From contig CBDCJH010000002.1 in NCBI GenBank assembly GCA_965217775.1, forward strand, positions 1,824,001-1,888,000: a stretch of DNA of 64,000 nt, read 5' to 3'. Under the pieces are notes generated by a model. The model searched no databases. It saw only the letters and a list, made by a program, of their open reading frames with translations, and had not been told where the DNA came from. Numbering within the stretch: the first letter of the stretch is position 1; each line of letters begins with the position of its first letter. Both the position numbers and the translations under genes were made by a program. This DNA is from Acidobacteriota bacterium. GTDB lineage: Bacteria; Acidobacteriota; UBA6911; RPQK01; JAJDTT01. Shown here one piece after another: positions 33,963 through 46,905 of the stretch.

Positions 33963-35880
33963 TCACTCAGCCCTGACCTGAATCTTGATCCGGCGCCGGT
34001 CCACTCCGCCACGGGTGGAGTGGATGGAGACCTCCGCGTCCACCGACTCGACGTCCTTGAGCCGTACCCTCCAGGCCACGGTCCGATTCTGCGCCGGGTC
34101 CAACCAACCTGCCTCAATATCCTTGCTTCGCAGCGACGGCTCCAAGATCTTTACTTTCCCGCTCTCCACAAGCTCTTCGTCGAATTTGATCCGGGCCGTG
34201 TCCGGCTTCACGATCTTGACCCGCCGGGCCTGGACCAGGGCCGTGGGGAGATGGCCCACATTACGGTAGGTGAGCTCGATGGAATAGTCCCCGGGGGCCA
34301 GAGACCTCACCCGGATCCGTGAAATCCGGACCTGAGGGAGTTGCCTGGCCAGGAACAGATTGAACCGGGTGCTCTTGAGCGCCCACTCCTCAAGCAGGTC
34401 CACGGGCGGATTCCAGAAGGCGAACTTGGGCGTGAATCCCCCGATCTCCACTTCTCCCAACTGGGGATGTGCGATCTTCTTCCAGGGAATGAACTCCTTG
34501 CCGCCGCGCTCCCGGTCGTTCCAGACCATGGCGTCGTAGTCGTCCAGTCTGCCGTCCCCGTCAAAATCCTCCTTGCGTCCAATGTTCCAGAGCTCGTCGT
34601 TGTACCAGATGGAGCCGAAGTAGAAGTATCCGAAGTCGGGCCCGTGGCCGAACAGCGGGATGGGCCGGCTCGGCTCCCCGGTGATGACATGGAAGGGATG
34701 GACGTTCCGGTAGTCCTCGTAGACGTCGCCGGCCCACGGATACCCCGAAATCGCCTTCCCCTGTTTGTCCAGGTAGACGTACCACTTGAGGTCCTCAGGG
34801 GCCATGCTCTCCTGGCTGCGGCTGGTGGAGGGCGGACGCAGGTGCATGGCCATGGGCGTGTCCATGGACTGGCCGATGGCCACGTTGGGATGGGTCAGCA
34901 GGAAGAGGACCACGGCCCGCGTCTCCGGCTCGGACAGGGGGTATTCGCCCGCGCCCACCTGGGTGAACCCCCGGCCGGTGGCGTCCCGGCCCGGTTCCGG
35001 CCGCCAGTTCTCCGGATAGTTGCGGTGCAGGTCGAGTCCGCCGATCCCGTCCTCGTTGAACTTGCCGTCCCCGTCGTTGTCCACGCCCTCCGGGTCGACC
35101 TGCCAGTCCCCCTCCCCCTCGGGCACCATCTTCATGAGCCGCTCCGGGTCTCTCGGGTCCCGGATGGCGTTTCCCTTCCCCTCTCCCACATGGTGGCGCA
35201 TCTGCAGCAGGAGGCCGTCGCCGTCCAGATCCTCGCCCGGGTCCTCGTCCAGGAGGCCGTCCCGGTCCGTGTCGTGGGGACGGACCGAGCTGCGATTGGT
35301 CTGGGCCGTCAGCAGGAAGAGCTCGGCGCCGTCGGGATTGTTCACCGGGCGCAGGTAGAAGGCCTTGGTATCCACCAAGTGGGTGATCTCGGGGTCCTTT
35401 CCGTACCCGGTCACCAGCAGATGAATGAGCTGGACGATGGAGACGGAACTGGCGATCTCGCCCGAATGACGGCCGCCCTCGGCGAACATGGCCGGCTTGT
35501 CGGTGTCCTTGCCCGTCTCCCGGTTGGTCACGGTCACCTGCCAGATCTCGCGCCCCTCGAAGGTCCGGCCCACCGAGTAGAGCTCCAATATCTGCGGATA
35601 CTCCCGCGCCCACCCCTGGAGGAACCCGTGGATCTCGCCATAGGTGGGATAGTGCTCGAAGTCCAGTTCTCCTTCCTTCAGAGGCTTCACTTCCGGGTAA
35701 TGGACCCGGGGAAAGAAACTTGGACCGTCCCGTTTTCCCCCGACCCGGTAGGTCTCCGCTGCCTTTTCTTCGCCAGCTCCAGGTTCGGATTGAGGTTGTG
35801 CCCCAAAACCGACTTCGGCATAAACCCCTGCCAGAACCGCAGCGGCGATCCAGGTCAGACTCTTCCTTCTCATATCCATC
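33963..35880 (-). CDS. M14 zinc carboxypeptidase family protein
   Basis: RHSGE, NNPDG, DLHRNY, PLSEPET; DxDxDG loops; start taken at MDMRRKS, which begins a signal peptide. Confidence 0.85.
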
Positions 35881-36067
35881 CTGAGCGACCTCCGAGGCCG
35901 ATTATGGCTGCAAGTCATCATGTGCTCGTGCCCCGCTGGAACCGGATCAGTTTCCTTCGACGGCTGCGCCATTTCAAGAATCTTGCGTTCGTCCCATTTT
36001 GACCCGGAGATATCGGATGGATAGACTCGCTGTCCGTTCCTGACGGGCCACACGGAGGATCCGAACG

Positions 36068-37579
36068 ATGAGACCACTTCTGCTCGCGGCTCTGCTGTTC
36101 ACGACACCTGCATTGAACGCCGGAAGTCACCACCAGACCCAACCTCTCGAGATCGGCGACCGGCTGGAGCTCATGGTAGACGACTACTTGATCGACTCCA
36201 TGACCGGGGACGTCCGGCTGGAGCTTCAAACCCCCACCTCCGGCGGCAGAGTGCTCCATTTCGACAAGCCTTGGGAGGGCACGACCTGCTTCTACGTCTC
36301 GGTGGTTCACGGCGACGGCCTCTACCGCATGTACTACCGGGGCCACAGCCTCCCGTCCTCCGCAGCCCCGTCCCTTCTGGAACCGGGCGAGACCATGGTC
36401 CCCGAACATCCCGAGATGACCTGCTACGCCGAGAGCCGGGACGGCCGGACCTGGACCAAGCCCGCGCTGGGTCTGGTGGAGTTCGACGGATCGAAACAGA
36501 ACAACATCATCTGGGACCGCTTCGGCAACCACAACTTCATGGTCTTCCTGGACACCAATCCCAAAACGCCACGCGAGGAACGGTACAAGGCATTGGCCTC
36601 GGGGGAACCCAACCACCCGTTGAAACGGATGGTGGGGATGGTTTCGCCCGACGGGATCCACTGGAAACCCATCCGTGAGGAGGCCATCCTGACGCAGCCT
36701 CCCACGGACTGGGGAGGCGACGAGATCTTCTGGGACCAGTTCAGGAATGAGTATGTCGCTTATCTCCGGGTCTGGTTTCCACCTCGTCACGATGGTGCAG
36801 GCGAGCGCCGGATGCCCACCATCCGGGCCATCGCCCGGGCCACCTCACCCGATTTCCTGAACTGGAGCAAGCTGGAGGACATCGAGTTGGGGGAGGGTCC
36901 CCGGGACCAGTTCTACACCAACGGCATTACGCCTTACTACCGGGCGCCCCACATCTTCCTGGGCTTCCCCAAGCGTTTCGTTCCCTGGCGGACCAAGATT
37001 GCCGATGCGCCCGAGAACGGGGTCTCCGAAACGGTGTTCATGACCAGCCGCGACGGTCTGAACTGGGACCGCAGGTTCCCCCAAGCCTTCATTCGGCCCG
37101 GCCGCGAGAAGAGGAACTGGTACAACCGCACCAACATGACCTCTACCGGAGTGGTCTCCACAGGAGATGACGAGATCTCCCTCTACGTGCTCCGCCACTA
37201 CAAGTTTCCCAGCATTCACATGGAGCGGATGGTCCTGAGGACCGACGGATTCGTCTCCCTCAACGCCGGCTACGGCGGAGGAGAAGTCGTCACCAAGCCT
37301 CTGACCTTCAAGGGGAGCAACCTGGTGCTCAACTTCGCCACCTCCGCGGCGGGAAGCATCCACATCGAGATCCAGGACGAGTCGGGGCGGCCGCTTCCCG
37401 GCTTCGCGCTGGAGGAATCGCCGCTGGTCTGGGGGGACGAGATCGAGTACACCGTCAGGTGGAAGCGTTCCCACGCCGGCGCGAATTCGGATGAACCTTT
37501 GAAGCGGATTGCTGGCAAACCGGTCCGGCTGCGTCTGGTGATGAAGGACGCCGACCTCTTTTCGCTACGGTTTCGTTGA
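36068..37579 (+). CDS. Secreted beta-propeller glycoside-hydrolase-like protein
   Basis: Signal peptide; CYAESRDGRTWTKP, SPDGIHW, SRDGLNW, LRTDGFVS; ends DADLFSLRFR. Confidence 0.75.
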   Translation: MRPLLLAALLFTTPALNAGSHHQTQPLEIGDRLELMVDDYLIDSMTGDVRLELQTPTSGGRVLHFDKPWEGTTCFYVSVVHGDGLYRMYYRGHSLPSSAAPSLLEPGETMVPEHPEMTCYAESRDGRTWTKPALGLVEFDGSKQNNIIWDRFGNHNFMVFLDTNPKTPREERYKALASGEPNHPLKRMVGMVSPDGIHWKPIREEAILTQPPTDWGGDEIFWDQFRNEYVAYLRVWFPPRHDGAGERRMPTIRAIARATSPDFLNWSKLEDIELGEGPRDQFYTNGITPYYRAPHIFLGFPKRFVPWRTKIADAPENGVSETVFMTSRDGLNWDRRFPQAFIRPGREKRNWYNRTNMTSTGVVSTGDDEISLYVLRHYKFPSIHMERMVLRTDGFVSLNAGYGGGEVVTKPLTFKGSNLVLNFATSAAGSIHIEIQDESGRPLPGFALEESPLVWGDEIEYTVRWKRSHAGANSDEPLKRIAGKPVRLRLVMKDADLFSLRFR

Positions 37580-40842: not shown

Positions 40843-43263
40843 TCAAAAGAATCTCATCATATAGGTAAATCGAACGCCTCGGCCGATCTCCGGGGCAAGG
40901 TCCTTGACGAAAGACGAGTGATTGCGGTAAAGCCGGTCACCGGCGTTGAAGACATTCACCGAAAACTGGTGAGCCAAGTGCTGCTGTGCATATATGTAGG
41001 ACGCTTTGAGGTTGACGACGGCATAGCCCGGAGTGCGTGTCTCGCCCGTAAACGTTTGGTTCTGCTGGCTCGCCAGAATCAACTGTGGAGTGAATTGGAA
41101 GCCAGCGAATCTGTAGTCGAGGCCGATCCTACCTCTCAGCGGCGGGATGCGCGGTAGAGGAGTATGGGTGTCCGTTTCTTGGGCATCGACGAAGTCGATA
41201 CCGAGATTCAGCCACAGGTCGCGGTGCAGGACAAAGTTTGCATTCGCCTCCGCGCCCACGAAGCGCGCCTCAAGCTGGGTGAATTCGATCACCAGCAGTT
41301 CATCCTCTTCCTCACCGGTTGCAAAGGGAAAGATGAAGTTGCTGAAGCCGTAGTAGAAGAAGTTGATGTCGCCGCGCACGGGGCCTTCGTTGTGGCGCAG
41401 CGACAGGTCGAAGCCGTTGCTCCTTTCGGCGTCGAGGTTCGGGTTGCCGATCTCGAAGGCCAGGTTTCCCGTGTGAGGTCCGAAATTGTAGAGCTCTTCA
41501 AGCGTCGGCGCGCGGTAGCTAAGTGTGTAGTTTGCCACGAAGGCTCCACCGGGCCAGAGGCTGGCATGCAGTCCCGCCGCGGCCGAACCGCCGGTAAACG
41601 TGCGTTTGACGGCGTCGGACACTTCTTCCTCTTCGCCATGCTCTTCCCCCTCTTCCTCATGCTCGTCCTCATGGCCGGCCTCGCCTCGCTCGGCGAATGC
41701 CGGGTTGTAACGCTGCATCTCGGCACGCCCGCCGAACTGGAATTTCACGCGCTCGAATTCCAGTTCTTCCAAAGCGAAGAGCGCGAATCCGTTCTGATCC
41801 ACGGGCGGGGAGAGTGCCTCTTCGCCTGTTGCGTCATACTCGCGGTCAATGCCCCAGAAGCCAAAACGGCCGCTCAGCGGCCCTTTCCTGGCTTGCTCGA
41901 ATACGCCGCGATAGATGAACTGGTTATTGTTGAAGGCTGTTCCGATCTCCTGCTCCCCGTTCTCAAAGAACTCAACTTCGTCGTGTTCCCAATCAACGTA
42001 GCTCAACTTCAAATCAAAGTTCTCGATTGTCGAGCCGAGGTCGTTTAGGCCCCAGTTGATGCGATAGCTCTGACGGCGCGAATCGAGCGAGACCCGTTCG
42101 AGCTCCTCCTCGTCGTCATGTCCCTCTTCTTCTCCGTGATCCTCGTCTTCTTCTTCCTCGTCGTGGTCCTCGCCTTCTTCTTCGTCGTGATTTCCTTCTT
42201 CTTCCTCGCCGTGATGACCATGGAGTTCCTGGGCGAATGGCACTCCGTTGCTGCCGTCGTCCACTTTGACATCGAAGCTGAAGAAGGTTCTATTGCCGAA
42301 CCAGCCGAAGCCCCCACCGCCATTGAAGTTGTTTGCCTCTGAGTTGAAAATCTTGCCCTGTTTCGAGGCGGTGTAATCGCCCGTGCGAATGCCTGCGGTC
42401 GAACCCCATATCATCCAGTTTCCGGCTCCATACTCGAAACCGGTACTGCCACCGGCCAGCGCGTTTGCCGTACCCGCTGATCCGGAAATGTAACCGCGCA
42501 GCCCTTCGTGCGGGTGACGATGCACCTCATGATGTCGGCTGATTGCGTTGACTGTGCCGCCGATGGCGTTACCCGAGTAAAGCAACGTCGCCGGACCCCT
42601 GACGATTTCGAGCCGCTCCAGTTGTGCCGAATTGACCACCTCGCCATGGTCGCCCGACTGCGATGCCAGCGTTCCCGTGCGAATACCGTCCTCCATGATT
42701 AACACCCGGTCGCCGTCGAACCCACGAATGATCGGCCGCGACGATCCAGGACCGAAGCTGCGTTTCGAGATCCCCGTGCCCACCTGTTGGTCAAGCACCT
42801 CGCCAATCGAAACATTGTGCAAGCCGCCCAATTCGTAGGCGTGGAGGGAATGCACATTACTGAACGCTTCGAAGGGGACCTCCTCTTTCCCGCCTCCCGT
42901 GACGGTGATCTCATATCTTTGAGCTCTCAAGCCGAGCGTGAAGTTGGCTGTCGTCGTCTCTCCGGCCACAACGTCGACGGCTTGGGTCTCATCGGTGAAG
43001 ACGCTGTCCAGGTGTGCGATGACCTGATAGCGGCCTGGAGGAACGTTCTTGAATTCATACGATCCGTCAGCGCCGCTCAGCATGCTGCGGCCGAGTTCGA
43101 TGACCTGAACGTGGGCCCCATGCAGCGGGCTGTTGATCTCTTCCATAAACACTGATCCGTCGATCTGTCCCGATTCCTGGGCTTCAAGGCAAACGGATCC
43201 CCATAGGGGAAATGTGAAAACGGCAATCAATCTGCGCAAACGGCTTGCGAATCTTTTAAACAT
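40843..43263 (-). CDS. TonB-dependent receptor, ZnuD-like, with His/Glu-rich loops
   Basis: SFGPGSSRPIIRG, SGDHG, EIVRGPATLLY, GPHTG, PRIPP, NHSSFVKD, C-terminal F; loops such as HGHHGEEEEGNHDEEE. Confidence 0.9.
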   Translation of the reverse strand: MFKRFASRLRRLIAVFTFPLWGSVCLEAQESGQIDGSVFMEEINSPLHGAHVQVIELGRSMLSGADGSYEFKNVPPGRYQVIAHLDSVFTDETQAVDVVAGETTTANFTLGLRAQRYEITVTGGGKEEVPFEAFSNVHSLHAYELGGLHNVSIGEVLDQQVGTGISKRSFGPGSSRPIIRGFDGDRVLIMEDGIRTGTLASQSGDHGEVVNSAQLERLEIVRGPATLLYSGNAIGGTVNAISRHHEVHRHPHEGLRGYISGSAGTANALAGGSTGFEYGAGNWMIWGSTAGIRTGDYTASKQGKIFNSEANNFNGGGGFGWFGNRTFFSFDVKVDDGSNGVPFAQELHGHHGEEEEGNHDEEEGEDHDEEEEDEDHGEEEGHDDEEELERVSLDSRRQSYRINWGLNDLGSTIENFDLKLSYVDWEHDEVEFFENGEQEIGTAFNNNQFIYRGVFEQARKGPLSGRFGFWGIDREYDATGEEALSPPVDQNGFALFALEELEFERVKFQFGGRAEMQRYNPAFAERGEAGHEDEHEEEGEEHGEEEEVSDAVKRTFTGGSAAAGLHASLWPGGAFVANYTLSYRAPTLEELYNFGPHTGNLAFEIGNPNLDAERSNGFDLSLRHNEGPVRGDINFFYYGFSNFIFPFATGEEEDELLVIEFTQLEARFVGAEANANFVLHRDLWLNLGIDFVDAQETDTHTPLPRIPPLRGRIGLDYRFAGFQFTPQLILASQQNQTFTGETRTPGYAVVNLKASYIYAQQHLAHQFSVNVFNAGDRLYRNHSSFVKDLAPEIGRGVRFTYMMRFF

Positions 43264-43477
43264 CCGGAGTCTCCTCTCGAGAGTGAAAAGGGGTGGAAGC
43301 AAGAAGAAAGAACGAGTTCTGAAACGATTGAAGCCGGTCTCAAAATAGACGGGATGACGCAACGGCAGAGGATTGGAGGCTGCTTCAGAGGCCAAAGCCC
43401 CGATTTTCAAGGCCGTTGCGGCACGACTGCAAGCCGTGCGCCGACTGCTGACAAAAAAGGGTTTTTTGAGACCGGTT

Positions 43478-43834
43478 CTAGCTCAGAGGAGGGCCGCGAA
43501 GCGGGGGTATTCCGACCTTGAACAGTCTGACGTTTTCGGTGGCGGATGGTGGGGTTCTGAAGACAGGGGATTTTCCGAAGACCAGAATCGGTTTCAGAGC
43601 GGGACTGAATTGCTGAGCGTGAAGGCAGTTATGATTACCGTGGTGGCCATCTTCAGCGCATACCAAACCTCTATCGACATCTGAGGCGGAGTGAGTATGG
43701 CTGTCGGCGGGCCAGAATTCTTCGATAGGATGGGCAATCTCCAGAGACCCGCCAAACGCAAAAGCCAGTAGCGGCAACAGGAGCAATGTGACGGTTGATT
43801 TCCTGAGAAATCCCGAACCCACCATAAGGACCAC
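43478..43834 (-). CDS. His-rich exported leader protein ending in RGPP (DUF2946/CruR-like architecture)
   Basis: Signal or TM segment; HTH, CAEDGHHGNHNCLH; ends PPLRGPPLS-stop, 215 nt upstream of the receptor. Confidence 0.72.
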   Translation of the reverse strand: MVLMVGSGFLRKSTVTLLLLPLLAFAFGGSLEIAHPIEEFWPADSHTHSASDVDRGLVCAEDGHHGNHNCLHAQQFSPALKPILVFGKSPVFRTPPSATENVRLFKVGIPPLRGPPLS

Positions 43835-43859
43835 TATAGCGCAAATTCGAGTGGGGCGA

Positions 43860-44814
43860 AATCGACTCCATGACCGGGGACGTCCGGCTGGAGCTTCAAA
43901 CCCCCACCTCCGGCGGCAGAGTGCTCCATTTCGACAAGCCTTGGGAGGGCACGACCTGCTTCTACGTCTCGGTGATTCACGGCGACGGCCTCTACCGCAT
44001 GTACTACCGGGGCCACAGTCTCCCGTCCTCCGCAGCCCCGTCCCTTCTGGAACCGGGCGAGACCATGGTCCCCGAACATCCCGAGATGACCTGCTACGCC
44101 GAGAGCCGGGACGGCCGGACCTGGACCAAGCCCGCGCTGGGTCTGGTGGAGTTCGACGGATCGAAACAGAACAACATCATCTGGGACTGCTTCGGCAACC
44201 ACAACTTCATGGTCTTCCTGGACACCAATCCCGAAACGCCACCCGAGGAACGGTACAAGGCATTGGCCTCGGGGCAACCCAACCACCCGTTGAAACGGAT
44301 GGTGGGGATGGTTTCGCCCGACGGGATCCACTGGAAACCCATCCGTGAGGAGGCCATCCTGACGCAGCCTCCCACGGACTGGGGAGGCGACGAGATCTTC
44401 TGGGACCAGTTCAGGAATGAGTATGTCGCTTATCTCCGGGTCTGGTTTCCACCTCGTCACGATGATTCAGGCGAGCGCCGGATGCCCAACATCCGGGCCA
44501 TCGCCCGGGCCACCTCACCCGATTTCCTGAACTGGAGCAAGCTGGAGGACATCGAGTTGGGGGAGGGTCCCCGGGACCAGTTCTACACCAACGGCATTAC
44601 GCCGTACTACCGGGCGCCCCACATCTTCCTGGGCTTCCCCAAGCGTTTCGTTCCCTGGCGGACCAAGATTGCCGATGCGCCCGAGAACGGGGTCTCCGAA
44701 ACGGTGTTCATGACCAGCCGCGACGGTCTGAACTGGGACCGCAGATTCCCCCAAGCCTTCATTCGGCCCGGCCGCGAGAAGAGAAAATGGTACAACCGCA
44801 CCAACATGACCTCT
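43860..44814 (+). pseudogene. Near-identical internal duplicate of the 36068 gene (about 36190-37145)
   Basis: Only a few substitutions versus the original; lacks both the signal peptide and the C-terminus. Confidence 0.92.
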
Positions 44815-45079
44815 AATCGAACTTACGATTAAGAAGTCGGGCGCGGATTTGCTCGAAAAGAGCTCGAAGATCGATTAGATCCTGCTCGTCGCGACGGCTG
44901 GCTAGTGCCGAGTACGTCGGGTCAAGGAGGATTTCGTTGACGGATTCAGAGGCGAGTCGCCGTCCCTCCAAGTAGAGGAACCGGGAATTCGTTGACGGAG
45001 AGCGGTTCTGACCTTCCCCGTCCGATCTCAGGGAAAGTCGTAACCTTTCGATCATTACATCAGTTTCCTTTTCCTTCAT
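44813..45079 (-). CDS. Small hypothetical protein
   Basis: AGGAGG RBS before ATG; palindrome ACACCATGGTGT just upstream. Confidence 0.5.
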   Translation of the reverse strand: MKEKETDVMIERLRLSLRSDGEGQNRSPSTNSRFLYLEGRRLASESVNEILLDPTYSALASRRDEQDLIDLRALFEQIRARLLNRKFD

Positions 45080-45224
45080 ATGTCCTCCTGTAGCACACCA
45101 TGGTGTCTAGGTAACACCGATCGCGCGAGGCCGGCTGGATTCGGACCCGCATCCCCTGGGGCGGAACTCAGGAGTTCTGGCGTTGATTTTGCGGGCCTGT
45201 TGATTCGGTAGAGAGGGGGCAACA

Positions 45225-45971
45225 TCATTCCTCGTCGATGTTTTCTCGTTTCTCAATGAATGGCGACACAGCTGTGATCAGTTCCAGCACTTCTTTAATG
45301 GATTGCCTGGTTACCCGTTCCCGAATCCTTAATTCAAACACGACACCTCCACTGGAATCCGGTGCCAATCGCATTACCGGTTTCTCGGACGCGGCAGTAG
45401 GTATGAAGGGGCCGGCGTAAGGGAGTGTGTCCACGCCAGAGATGAGGCCCACATAGACCAGATTCTGGAGAAAAACGCTGACCAGCTTTCCCGCTCCCTT
45501 CTCGCTGTAACGAGGCTCTGCCTCGGTCGTCAGGTGGCGAAAAATTACGTTCCCGACTCTCCGAAAATCTGCTTCGGAGACGCAACGTCCCAGTCGTTTT
45601 CGATAGCGGTTCCAGATTTCCCGAAAAACGGCGGGCTTCAGCGCGGCATTTCCAGCTGCGACAATGGAGCTGTCGCTTGAGCCGTGTCGATCATACCTTA
45701 AGAATTTTGTCCCATGCATCGGCACACACCAGTAATTGCTGGTGCCAGGCATGTCGAAAGGAGAGAGTAGCCCGTAGGCATGAAGGGCTGCCACACGGCT
45801 CCGGGCACTATAGCTCGACGAGGACATCTTCCAAATGCTGTAGATTCCGTCGGCTGAGATTGGAGATGATCCGTGATTCTCGTAAAGGTCCCGGAAAGGC
45901 GTTTTCAGCGCCTCCAACGGATGCCTTGGAAACGAAGGACTGCGCATTGGGGAGTCGTGTTTCTTTTCCAC
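45225..45971 (-). CDS. Hypothetical protein, possibly winged-helix
   Basis: Lower GC; N-terminal RSPSFP..LE...VAALHAYGLL pattern. Confidence 0.55.
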   Translation of the reverse strand: MEKKHDSPMRSPSFPRHPLEALKTPFRDLYENHGSSPISADGIYSIWKMSSSSYSARSRVAALHAYGLLSPFDMPGTSNYWCVPMHGTKFLRYDRHGSSDSSIVAAGNAALKPAVFREIWNRYRKRLGRCVSEADFRRVGNVIFRHLTTEAEPRYSEKGAGKLVSVFLQNLVYVGLISGVDTLPYAGPFIPTAASEKPVMRLAPDSSGGVVFELRIRERVTRQSIKEVLELITAVSPFIEKRENIDEE

Positions 45972-46348
45972 ACTGCGAATCTACGGCAAGCAGAGGTCGG
46001 CAGTCAAGAGGGAGAACAGAAGAACCGTAAGAAATGCCGTGACGGTTTTTACTTTGAGAGCGTCGTCTAGACAGGGTTACTGGCGTTTTTTGGAGGCAGT
46101 AGTGAGTTTACCTTGTAAAAAACGGGGTAAGGGAGAGGCAGCCGGCAGAGAATGTAACTGTCCCCCCTTCTCCCGTGCCCCATTGGAAGCATTACCACGC
46201 CGGGACCAGCCCGGCTGCAATCGCGTCAATCTCTTTCGTCTGCCTCCCCCAATTCAGGCACGCCAATAAGATCCATTTTGAGCCGAAGACCCTCGATGGA
46301 TAGGCTCGCTGCCCGTTTTCGGCAACGGAATAAAGGGAGGATCGGGAT

Positions 46349-46905
46349 GATGACATCAAGTCTGCTCGCGATTCTGGTGTTCACGACACCTGCATTGATC
46401 GCCGGAAGTCACCACCATTCGGCCCGGCCGCGAGAAGAGGAACTGGTGCAACCGCACCAACATGACGGCCACCGGAGTGGTCTCCACTGGCGATGACGAG
46501 ATATCCCTCTACGTGCTCCGCCACTACAAGTTCCCCAGCATTCACGTGGAGCGGATGGTCCTGAGGACCGACGGGTTCGTCTCCCTCAACGCCAGCTACG
46601 GCGGCGGGGAAGTCGTCACCAAGCCCCTGACCTTCGAGGGGAGCAATCTGGTGCTCAACCTCGCCACCTCCGCGGCGGGAAGCATCCACATCGAGAGCCA
46701 GGACGAGGCGGGGCGGCCGCTTCCCGGATTCGCTCTGGAGGAGTCGCCACTGGTCTGGGGGGACGAGATCGAGGACACCGTCAGGTGGAAGCGTTCCCAC
46801 TCCGGCGCCACCTCAAAGGCGCCCTTGAAGCGGATCGCGGGCAAACCGGTCCGGCTGCGTCCGGTGATGAAGGACGCCGACCTCTTTTCGCTATGATTTC
46901 GTTGA
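46349..46905 (+). pseudogene. Internally deleted paralog of the 36068 gene
   Basis: Signal-peptide region joined directly to the C-terminal ~160 codons; premature TGA at 46894. Confidence 0.9.

Follow-up and report, generated by a model that had tools for sequence, protein, structure and literature searches.

The window analysed here, 64,000 nt of the forward strand of contig CBDCJH010000002.1 (positions 1,824,001 to 1,888,000; Acidobacteriota bacterium, assembly GCA_965217775.1), carries on its minus strand a short open reading frame (ORF), called the leader below, followed by the gene for a TonB-dependent receptor; all coordinates are window positions. The leader ORF (43478..43825) encodes 115 amino acids plus a stop codon when read from ATG 43825, or 118 when read from the alternative GTG 43834, and the receptor gene (40843..43263) encodes 806. 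A preliminary description of this DNA had proposed that a His-rich peptide ending in RGPP, placed upstream of a receptor resembling ZnuD, acts as a metal-sensing arrest switch, and the ORF of about 118 residues that it described (43478..43834, minus strand), with a signal or transmembrane segment, a His/Cys cluster and a terminal RGPP-LS, was borne out by our analysis. The leader is a real, conserved gene of a small family that has no Pfam model, and it probably serves as a metal-sensing translation switch of the receptor, standing as the first gene of a two-gene operon.

The leader peptide (MVGSGFLRKSTVTLLLLPLLAFAFGGSLEIAHPIEEFWPADSHTHSASDVDRGLVCAEDGHHGNHNCLH...PLRGPPLS*) opens with a basic N-terminus followed by a hydrophobic helix, a signal peptide or membrane helix (residues 4-31, 43733..43816, minus strand) that AlphaFold2 modelled with a block predicted local distance difference test (pLDDT) of 84-97. 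This helix is the sole confidently modelled element, and the remainder is coil (predicted template modelling score, pTM, 0.33). Two clusters of potential metal ligands, conserved in the family alignment A2 described below, follow on the same strand: L-E-I-A-H-P-I-E-E ... H-T-H at residues 28-45 (43691..43744) and C56-x4-H61-H62-x2-H65-x-C67-x-H69 (43619..43660). Behind them lies a spacer or 'ruler' (residues 70-109, 43499..43618, minus strand), fixed in length and unconserved in sequence, which separates H69 from R110 by 40 residues rather than the roughly 35 first estimated. The peptide then reaches the RGPP arrest motif (R110-P113, CGC GGC CCT CCT, 43487..43498, minus strand), with a two-residue tail, Leu-Ser, before the stop codon (43478-43486).

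We favour ATG 43825 as the start of the leader because in all eleven homologues compared the start codon lies 30 codons ahead of the HP(I/L/V)EE motif, which is HPIEE in the window. Seven nucleotides before this ATG stands a promoter-like -10 box, TATAGT (hexamer 43838-43833, within 43833..43843, minus strand), with no Shine-Dalgarno sequence between the two. A TA-rich hexamer of this kind precedes the leader start by 6-13 nt in most of the 20 loci of the family that we compared, mostly as TGnTAnnnT in the relatives (for example L004-L013 and L023-L035), where the window has CGc for TGn. Across these loci no Shine-Dalgarno sequence separates box from start, and several members would start on GTG. 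Because the box lies so near the start and no Shine-Dalgarno sequence intervenes, the sequences suggest that the leader mRNA may be leaderless or near-leaderless across the family. A consensus promoter and terminator scan gave no match at the box of the window, and no sigma-70 site or minus-strand terminator in the intergenic region.

A search with the single leader protein identified homologues in 12 of 41 related genomes, along with three close metagenomic proteins. We built a profile, A1, from 11 sequences and searched it over 1.84 billion (1.84e9) protein representatives, and found only 60 proteins at E<=1e-3, nearly all of them 105-125 aa long. The preliminary description had suggested surveying leaders of receptor homologues for RxPP and its spacing, and both proved conserved. 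Among all 59 new representatives (P0005-P0063), 52 carry RxPP in their last 10 residues (RGPP in 33, RAPP in 16, RSPP in 2 and RDPP in 1), followed by a tail of 2-8 residues, most commonly 2 (19 cases), 3 (15) or 5 (10). Counted from the Cys of H..CxH, the Arg of RxPP lies 43 residues away in 49 of these 52 proteins, 42 in one and 44 in two.

Position-by-position conservation was read from alignment A2, which holds the window leader and 47 of the 59 representatives (48 rows). Representatives P0011, P0016, P0025, P0027, P0029, P0033, P0045, P0052, P0053, P0054, P0056 and P0061 were left out on account of long extensions, truncation or a missing C-terminal motif, so that the A2 counts for R110, P112 and P113 are biased upward. 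F22, E29 and C67 are invariant (48/48), and the remaining strongly conserved positions are H69 (47 rows), H65 (45), H43 and P33 (44 each), H45 (42), H32 and E35 (41 each) and E36 (40); C56 (29/48) and H62 (33/48) are semi-conserved. Columns 70-113 are free of gaps in all 48 rows, and no spacer column exceeds 22/48 identical residues. What the family keeps behind the ligand clusters is thus a length rather than a sequence.

Among 401 genomes of the phylum, the A2 profile recovered the leader family in 15, all belonging to the order of the window genome, within Terriglobia. The nearest relative, L035, is 84% identical and comes from a Terriglobia metagenome-assembled genome, and representative P0063 is labelled Acidobacteriota. 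Same-genus genomes gave no leader, neither among 5 sampled with the A2 profile nor among 8 searched with the single protein. The nearest clusters in the ESM Atlas are unnamed 'hypothetical protein' sets from other phyla, and one cluster auto-named 'DUF2946 domain-containing protein' (score 0.95) lists PF20558 (DUF6769); we treat these as leads only. From the single-protein locus search we dropped L036, a spurious match of 36 residues, and made no use of the weak matches L002 and L003 (own genome, E 0.013 and 1.1) and L014 (E 0.0043, with an in-frame TGA). The locus L010/L029 of genome G016 is included among the 20 loci and supplies a single row to the 11 of A1; none of our conclusions rests on it.

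In the 6.4-Mb genome that contains the window, 83 frames of at least 50 aa end in R[GA]PP plus 1-9 residues, and one of the 83, the window leader, also has a hydrophobic stretch and an ORF of at least 550 aa within 400 nt downstream. Because the motif and its spacing are conserved across the family, the arrangement of leader and receptor is more than chance.

The gene behind the leader encodes a protein with CarboxypepD_reg, Plug and TonB_dep_Rec_b-barrel domains (Pfam), and it begins at ATG 43263 (MFKRFASRLRRL...), with GAGAGGAG just before. The preliminary description had placed the leader directly upstream of it; it is indeed the next gene on the same strand, but an intergenic region of 214 nt (43264-43477) separates the two. 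Its best NCBIfam model is Zn_piracy_ZnuD (NF038289), at 196 bits against a cut-off of 950, with an E value of 1.1e-57 compared to 5.1e-17 for the TonB-copper model, and eight other receptors of the family score 185-220 bits against NF038289. The best PDB match is likewise ZnuD of Neisseria meningitidis (4rdr, E 7.8e-27). The receptor was also correctly described as His/Glu-rich: an insert at about residues 343-390 (42094..42237, minus strand) holds 7 His and 22 Asp/Glu in 40 residues. This insert aligns, at low posterior confidence, to ZnuD residues 258-320, a stretch that includes HDDDNAHAHTH and that we take to be a zinc-capture loop. The receptor differs from ZnuD in that it falls far short of an equivalog score, carries an extra N-terminal CarboxypepD_reg domain and has an insert rich in Glu rather than Asp.

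Two sets of loci depart from this plan at the receptor gene. L004 (G029) and L005 (G024) have ATA where the window receptor has ATG, 7 nt past a GGGAGGG Shine-Dalgarno sequence; the next canonical start is a TTG 10 codons on, use of which would strip the signal peptide of its basic N-region, and these receptors may use a non-canonical AUA start. In L030/L044 (G406) the receptor is split into ORFs of 150 aa and 618 aa, the Shine-Dalgarno sequence is GGAGCAG instead of GGAGGAG, the predicted helix described below is weakened too, and a Mu-type transposase lies just upstream; this module is probably decaying.

A TonB receptor in the same orientation follows the leader in 20 of 20 loci. We compared 121 neighbouring ORFs with Pfam in the 20-kb surroundings of 16 loci, and the receptor was the only conserved neighbour, the next gene usually running the other way. 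At least 7 of these loci have a transposase or integrase gene at their flank, and tonB-exbB-exbD-exbD stands just upstream in one. The leader and receptor are a self-contained, patchily distributed two-gene module.

Small exported leaders of TonB receptor genes are familiar from the DUF2946 family (PF11162), and the preliminary description had proposed a search against its hidden Markov model. The window peptide matched 0 Pfam families at E<=1, DUF2946 included, and 1 of the 11 members of A1 gave a weak DUF2946 match (E 0.045; the gathering score of PF11162 is 23.7 bits), so the leader is not a plain DUF2946 member. The window genome has no DUF2946 protein above the cut-off, and 4 of 201 sampled genomes of the phylum have a match, 3 of them above the cut-off; 123 further DUF2946 relatives were found alongside these sequences. 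The acidobacterial DUF2946 proteins are canonical, with a signal, (T)HxH, (E/H)CxxC, a spacer of about 44 residues and R(A/G)PP; C91 and C94 are invariant, and the second Cys lies 45 residues from the Arg. Profile-profile comparison of A2 with four of them gave a probability of 3.8%, and hhalign of A2 against 39 gave a probability of 30% (E 5.4e-4) over only the last 26 columns, around RxPP.

CxxC is absent from the leader family, which has a single invariant Cys within H-x2-H-x-C-x-H; together with HP-x-EE and HxH, this supports the proposal that His-rich ligands take the place of CxxC. The traits of the DUF2946 type that the leader family displays are the C-terminal RxPP, the fixed ligand-motif spacing, the export signal and the position at the head of an operon before the receptor. 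Because the profile match and CxxC both fail and the alignment is confined to the C-terminal motif, the leader family does not appear demonstrably homologous to DUF2946, though all architectural features are common to both; since both families are short and mostly unconserved, sequence comparison would neither establish nor exclude common ancestry. The two kinds of leader meet at the receptor. In L016-L019 / L052-L055, canonical CxxC DUF2946 leaders ending in RGPP or RAPP precede TonB receptors of the CarboxypepD_reg type, 3 of 4 of which are ZnuD-like by best NCBIfam match (224-256 bits), indicating that within one phylum receptors of the same clade are served by two leader families of different build.

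We then turned to the RNA between the leader and the receptor. The codons of RxPP and the tail are complementary to the receptor Shine-Dalgarno sequence in the loci compared, with duplexes of -7.5 to -22.4 kcal/mol and helices of up to 16 bp (<=16 bp). In the window, the 5' strand of this predicted long-range helix is CCUCCUCUGAGC, covering the Pro-Pro-Leu-Ser codons (43481..43492, minus strand), and the 3' strand is the receptor Shine-Dalgarno region CUCGAGAGGAG (43271..43281, minus strand), 7 nt before ATG 43263; the duplex is predicted at -18.1 to -18.9 kcal/mol. We folded the stretch running from the Arg codon up to the start of the receptor gene with a partition function, and the probability that the Shine-Dalgarno sequence pairs with stall or tail codons reached 0.44 or more in 15 of 20 loci. 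Because Pro-Pro codons are inherently anti-Shine-Dalgarno-like, we chose synonymous recoding as the null model, and the native duplex exceeded the recoded mean in strength in all 20 loci and fell within the lowest 5% in 9; the window duplex stood at 3% of synonymous recodings, that is, stronger than 97% of them. Cognate duplexes averaged -16.25 kcal/mol compared to -12.88 kcal/mol for non-cognate ones. We modelled a ribosome stalled with its P site on the first Pro codon by keeping its footprint unpaired; opening the ribosome-binding site then cost at least 3 kcal/mol less in 12 of 20 loci and at least 1 kcal/mol less in 15. The stall codons are thus predicted to pair with the receptor ribosome-binding site in 12-15 of the 20 loci, but not in the window.

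The exception in the window goes with an unusual intergenic region. Intergenic lengths are 63-105 nt in 18 of 20 loci and 169 nt (L012) and 217 nt (L035) in the other two, and the window contains a structured insert of about 150 nt (43334..43477, minus strand), found only there and in L035 (L035 10349-10500). The insert is a closed domain with a perfect 12-bp stem, CCGGUCUCAAAA (43475-43464) with UUUUGAGACCGG (43345-43334), that starts two bases past the leader stop. L004 and L005 (68-69% identity) have intergenic regions of 64-65 nt that match only the 3' part of the insert-bearing region. The insert has no Rfam family, a repeated mobile element was ruled out by its single copy in the genome, and the fold of 43240-43520 is not unusual (z = -1.04). 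Between the insert and the Shine-Dalgarno sequence runs a pyrimidine-rich, G-poor tract (43283..43333, minus strand) that may be a Rho-loading site or an alternative Shine-Dalgarno partner; the window Shine-Dalgarno sequence pairs with it in the 'stalled' fold. The window intergenic region as a whole is 32% C and 22% G.

How such a leader could work is suggested by a group of characterised arrest peptides. RGPP and RAPP are reported as the strongest arrest cores, robust and EF-P-refractory, with RSPP and RDPP partly permissive. Proteomes are purged of RGPP and RAPP, and in many Gram-negative phyla both are enriched at the C-terminal ends of small exported proteins whose genes precede those of TonB receptors (Fujiwara et al. 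2025, PMC12992588). ApdA, ApdP, ApcA, SecM and the upstream-ORF class of that study have RGPP or RAPP (rarely RSPP or RDPP) near the C-terminus, and the upstream-ORF class, like the leader, consists of small proteins with a localisation signal encoded upstream of a TonB receptor gene (PMC12992588). The main text of that paper (PMC12992588) uses the word 'zinc' 0 times, names no zinc sensor and brings in Acidobacteriota only in its proteome statistics; its supplements may list members of the leader family.

The closest functional parallel is CruR (Bp2923) of Bordetella pertussis, the DUF2946 prototype and likewise the small exported product of an upstream ORF that stands first in an operon containing a TonB-dependent transporter gene. 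In both systems a ligand motif stands at a fixed distance from a C-terminal R-A/G-P-P (45 intervening residues in CruR versus 40-42 in the leader family), R-A/G-P-P lies 2-3 residues before the stop codon, and a long intergenic region follows, of 162 bp in CruR and 214 bp in the window. More than 2000 (>2000) DUF2946 proteins reportedly keep the spacing from CxxC to RAPP within one or two residues, and a change of 5 residues is reported to impair regulation in CruR, which acts via Rho-dependent termination across its intergenic region of 162 bp and is described, as the leader is modelled here, without structure beyond the signal (PMC9426467). The expected logic for an uptake gene is also the same, with a stall meaning ON and metal freeing the stall. 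CruR differs from the leader family in its sensor, CxxC compared to H-x2-H-x-C-x-H with HP-x-EE and HxH, and in its output, Rho-dependent termination compared to the masking of the ribosome-binding site by stall codons that we predict for most members.

That second output has its own precedent in CutF of Rhodobacter capsulatus, also of the DUF2946 family, an exported leader whose C-terminal proline motif is reported to stall the ribosome and so melt the mRNA structure in which the ribosome-binding site of the following gene is hidden (bioRxiv 10.1101/2025.02.05.636593); this unmasking is the route predicted for 12-15 of the 20 leader-family loci. CutF is reported to differ in using CxxxC and an EF-P-sensitive PPP, with copper inducing the stall and turning on a detoxifying oxidase (bioRxiv 10.1101/2025.02.05.636593). 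In the leader family the motif belongs to the RGPP/RAPP type reported as EF-P-refractory and the target is an importer, and the opposite sign of response would be expected. Artificial constructs supply a third parallel. The 29-residue Cys2His2 domain ADR1a is reported to free a SecM stall on Zn2+-dependent folding only at tethers of 24-26 residues (Nilsson et al. 2015, PMC4571824), so that, as in the leader, a Cys/His mini-domain is set at a fixed distance from an arrest motif; the narrow tether range of Zn2+-driven release offers a physical reason for the fixed ruler and a plausible release mechanism. The ADR1a-SecM constructs differ in being artificial and cytosolic and in folding inside the tunnel at the 24-26-residue tether (PMC4571824), and the 41-43-residue tether and exported chain of the leader would place folding at or beyond the tunnel exit.

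We therefore propose, on the strength of these precedents and of the conserved motifs, that the N-terminal signal engages the export machinery while the leader is being translated and that the ribosome may stall at Arg-Gly-Pro-Pro, as known RGPP and RAPP motifs do. At the stall, H69 would lie 41 residues and the first ligand cluster 65-81 residues behind Arg110, placing the ligands just outside the exit tunnel, or in or beyond the translocon. Metal binding would compact the ligand segment, and the resulting pull on the nascent chain would free the stall; at low metal the ribosome would stay parked on the last leader codons. In most members the parked ribosome would keep the receptor ribosome-binding site open, so that the receptor is ON at low metal, and a released ribosome would let the helix between stall codons and Shine-Dalgarno sequence form, turning the receptor OFF at high metal. 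This sign of response is expected because the downstream gene is an importer. In the window, where the 150-nt insert separates the helix strands, the stall may instead, wholly or partly, block Rho-dependent termination, as in CruR.

Zinc is our best guess for the sensed metal, because the ligands are His, Glu and Cys, CxxC has been lost and the receptor resembles ZnuD. The fullest form of the proposal makes the leader the first natural zinc-sensing ribosome-arrest peptide, with a Cys/His/Glu 'knuckle' exactly 43 residues from RGPP, zinc-driven folding that frees the stall, and stall codons that double as the anti-Shine-Dalgarno strand shutting off a ZnuD-like importer; taken with all its parts, we regard this as a tentative possibility, somewhat doubtful as it stands.

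Several observations weigh against parts of this proposal. Seven of the 59 representatives lack RxPP (one has RGSP, one RAQP, and five have divergent or truncated ends). The pairing of Shine-Dalgarno sequence and stall codons has a probability of 0.33 in the window and about 0 in L035, L011 and L026, and stalling brings no gain in accessibility in the window (-0.5 kcal/mol), where the probability that the Shine-Dalgarno sequence is paired is 0.86 in the free and 0.97 in the stalled fold; the drop in opening energy is below 1 kcal/mol in 5 of 20 loci (the window, L035, L005, L026 and L011). Part of the complementarity comes free because Pro-Pro codons are anti-Shine-Dalgarno-like, and the 20 loci represent about 14 lineages by our own grouping and are not independent. 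As for the Rho route, base composition does not favour Rho loading throughout the family: C exceeds G in 10 of 20 intergenic regions and G exceeds C in 8. The case for zinc in particular is weak, because CxxC leaders also precede ZnuD-like receptors and a strong His/acidic insert occurs in just 4 of 13 valid readings of family receptors, the reading of L035, taken in a wrong frame, being left out. Among the 121 neighbouring ORFs of the 16 loci there were no znu, COG0523 or zur genes. As clues to the metal, we set aside both the receptor clade, which does not discriminate between the two kinds of leader, and the context genes, which include no conserved neighbour besides the receptor.

The same architecture could serve another metal, with the leader acting as a sequence-diverged CruR that senses copper (or nickel or cobalt) and controls a copper-type importer. 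The sole validated relatives, CruR and CutF, are reported to sense copper (PMC9426467; bioRxiv 10.1101/2025.02.05.636593), ligand sets of His and Cys free of Met also bind Cu(II), Ni and Co, and the shared receptor clade and the lack of zinc-specific neighbour genes in the 16 loci are as this alternative would have them. However, the CxxC that defines the copper sensors is replaced by one invariant Cys among dominant His and Glu, the receptor matches ZnuD far better than the TonB-copper model, and its insert aligns to the His/Asp stretch of ZnuD; we consider sensing of another metal unlikely.

The proposal that the leader is a metal-sensing switch also has to be set against the view that it acts as a protein. 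We think it probable that it is a regulatory peptide rather than a protein with a job of its own, and a stable folded protein is disfavoured because AlphaFold2 shows no structure beyond the signal helix. A stable metal-binding protein of small size that is exported or anchored in the membrane, for instance a metallochaperone or receptor partner in which RxPP is incidental or a slowdown that aids export, would account for the cleavable-looking signal, the conserved ligands right after the predicted cleavage site and the constant pairing of leader and receptor genes. It would not explain why a spacer of fixed length and free sequence ends in the proteome's most avoided tetrapeptide 2-3 residues ahead of a stop codon, a trait reported of arrest sensors (PMC12992588) and shunned by stable proteins, or why the codons used at the stall site favour a duplex with the receptor ribosome-binding site, and we judge it very improbable. 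Least credible of all is a role in gauging export capacity (Sec/YidC or a TonB-related envelope state) by translation arrest, in the manner of SecM or MifM, with His, Cys and Glu contacting the translocon: the leader has an export signal and most characterised RAPP-class peptides are reported to monitor localisation and to be freed by translocation pull (PMC12992588), but the downstream gene is a metal-type TonB receptor and not sec or yidC, eleven conserved positions are classic metal ligands, and CruR is a metal-sensing precedent before the same class of gene (PMC9426467).

The surroundings of the module in the window indicate how it may have arrived. Its upstream boundary lies about 36 nt before the leader start codon. 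Divergent from the leader, 43870-44829 and 46462-46893 (plus strand) form a broken second copy of a 503-aa gene at 36068-37576 (plus strand), to which codons 45-360 are 97% and codons 357-500 91% identical; about 1.6 kb (44830-46461), holding an unannotated 248-aa ORF (45228-45971, minus strand), separates the two pieces. The second copy is missing its first 44 codons, and the gap falls exactly at the point where the leader-receptor module starts; metagenomic contigs part at 43861. It looks as if the module was inserted or recombined into the second gene copy. About 5 kb downstream of the receptor stop at 40843, a 704-aa Peptidase_M14 gene (zinc carboxypeptidase; 33966-36077, minus strand) was noted; no link between it and the module was seen in other loci.

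Sequences near-identical to window 43000-44000 occur in two metatranscriptomic libraries labelled sponge metagenome (X17 and X19, with 5-6 differences per about 400 nt) and in many other runs, indicating that the organism or a close relative is widespread in public data. The RNA-library contigs fall on the leader ORF (X17 at 43404-43814 and X19 at 43461-43855, from one study); no RNA-library contig falls on the receptor at 42400-43403, though runs X1 and X4 cover the receptor. A short leader transcript would fit this pattern, but we did not count it as evidence, as it comes from one study in which DNA carry-over is possible, and missing cover proves nothing.

The general kind of element, an exported RxPP leader before a TonB receptor, is already known, and the sequence and sensor motif of the leader family appear to be new. 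A literature search covering full text from 2021 for zinc, with the supplements of PMC12992588 outside its scope, found neither the leader family nor a zinc-sensing arrest leader nor a His-rich single-Cys sensor in print. Whole families of this kind are missed by leader censuses based on Pfam, as the leader family shows. With a tether fixed at 43 residues and stall codons predicted to overlap the anti-Shine-Dalgarno strand, the family yields precise, cheap mutational predictions.

Action of a metal on the nascent chain has so far been reported as demonstrated only for copper, in CruR and CutF with their CxxC or CxxxC motifs. The leader family keeps the whole design but swaps the sensor, and so allows one to test directly if zinc or other metals can act by this principle. 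It is relevant, too, to a question raised by Fujiwara et al. 2025 (PMC12992588), namely the source of the pulling force that frees RAPP-type arrests outside secretion. If the zinc reading is true, the leader would be a natural counterpart of the engineered ADR1a-SecM force sensor, and nascent-chain metal sensing would come to include zinc as well as copper, through a family with no sequence relationship to DUF2946.

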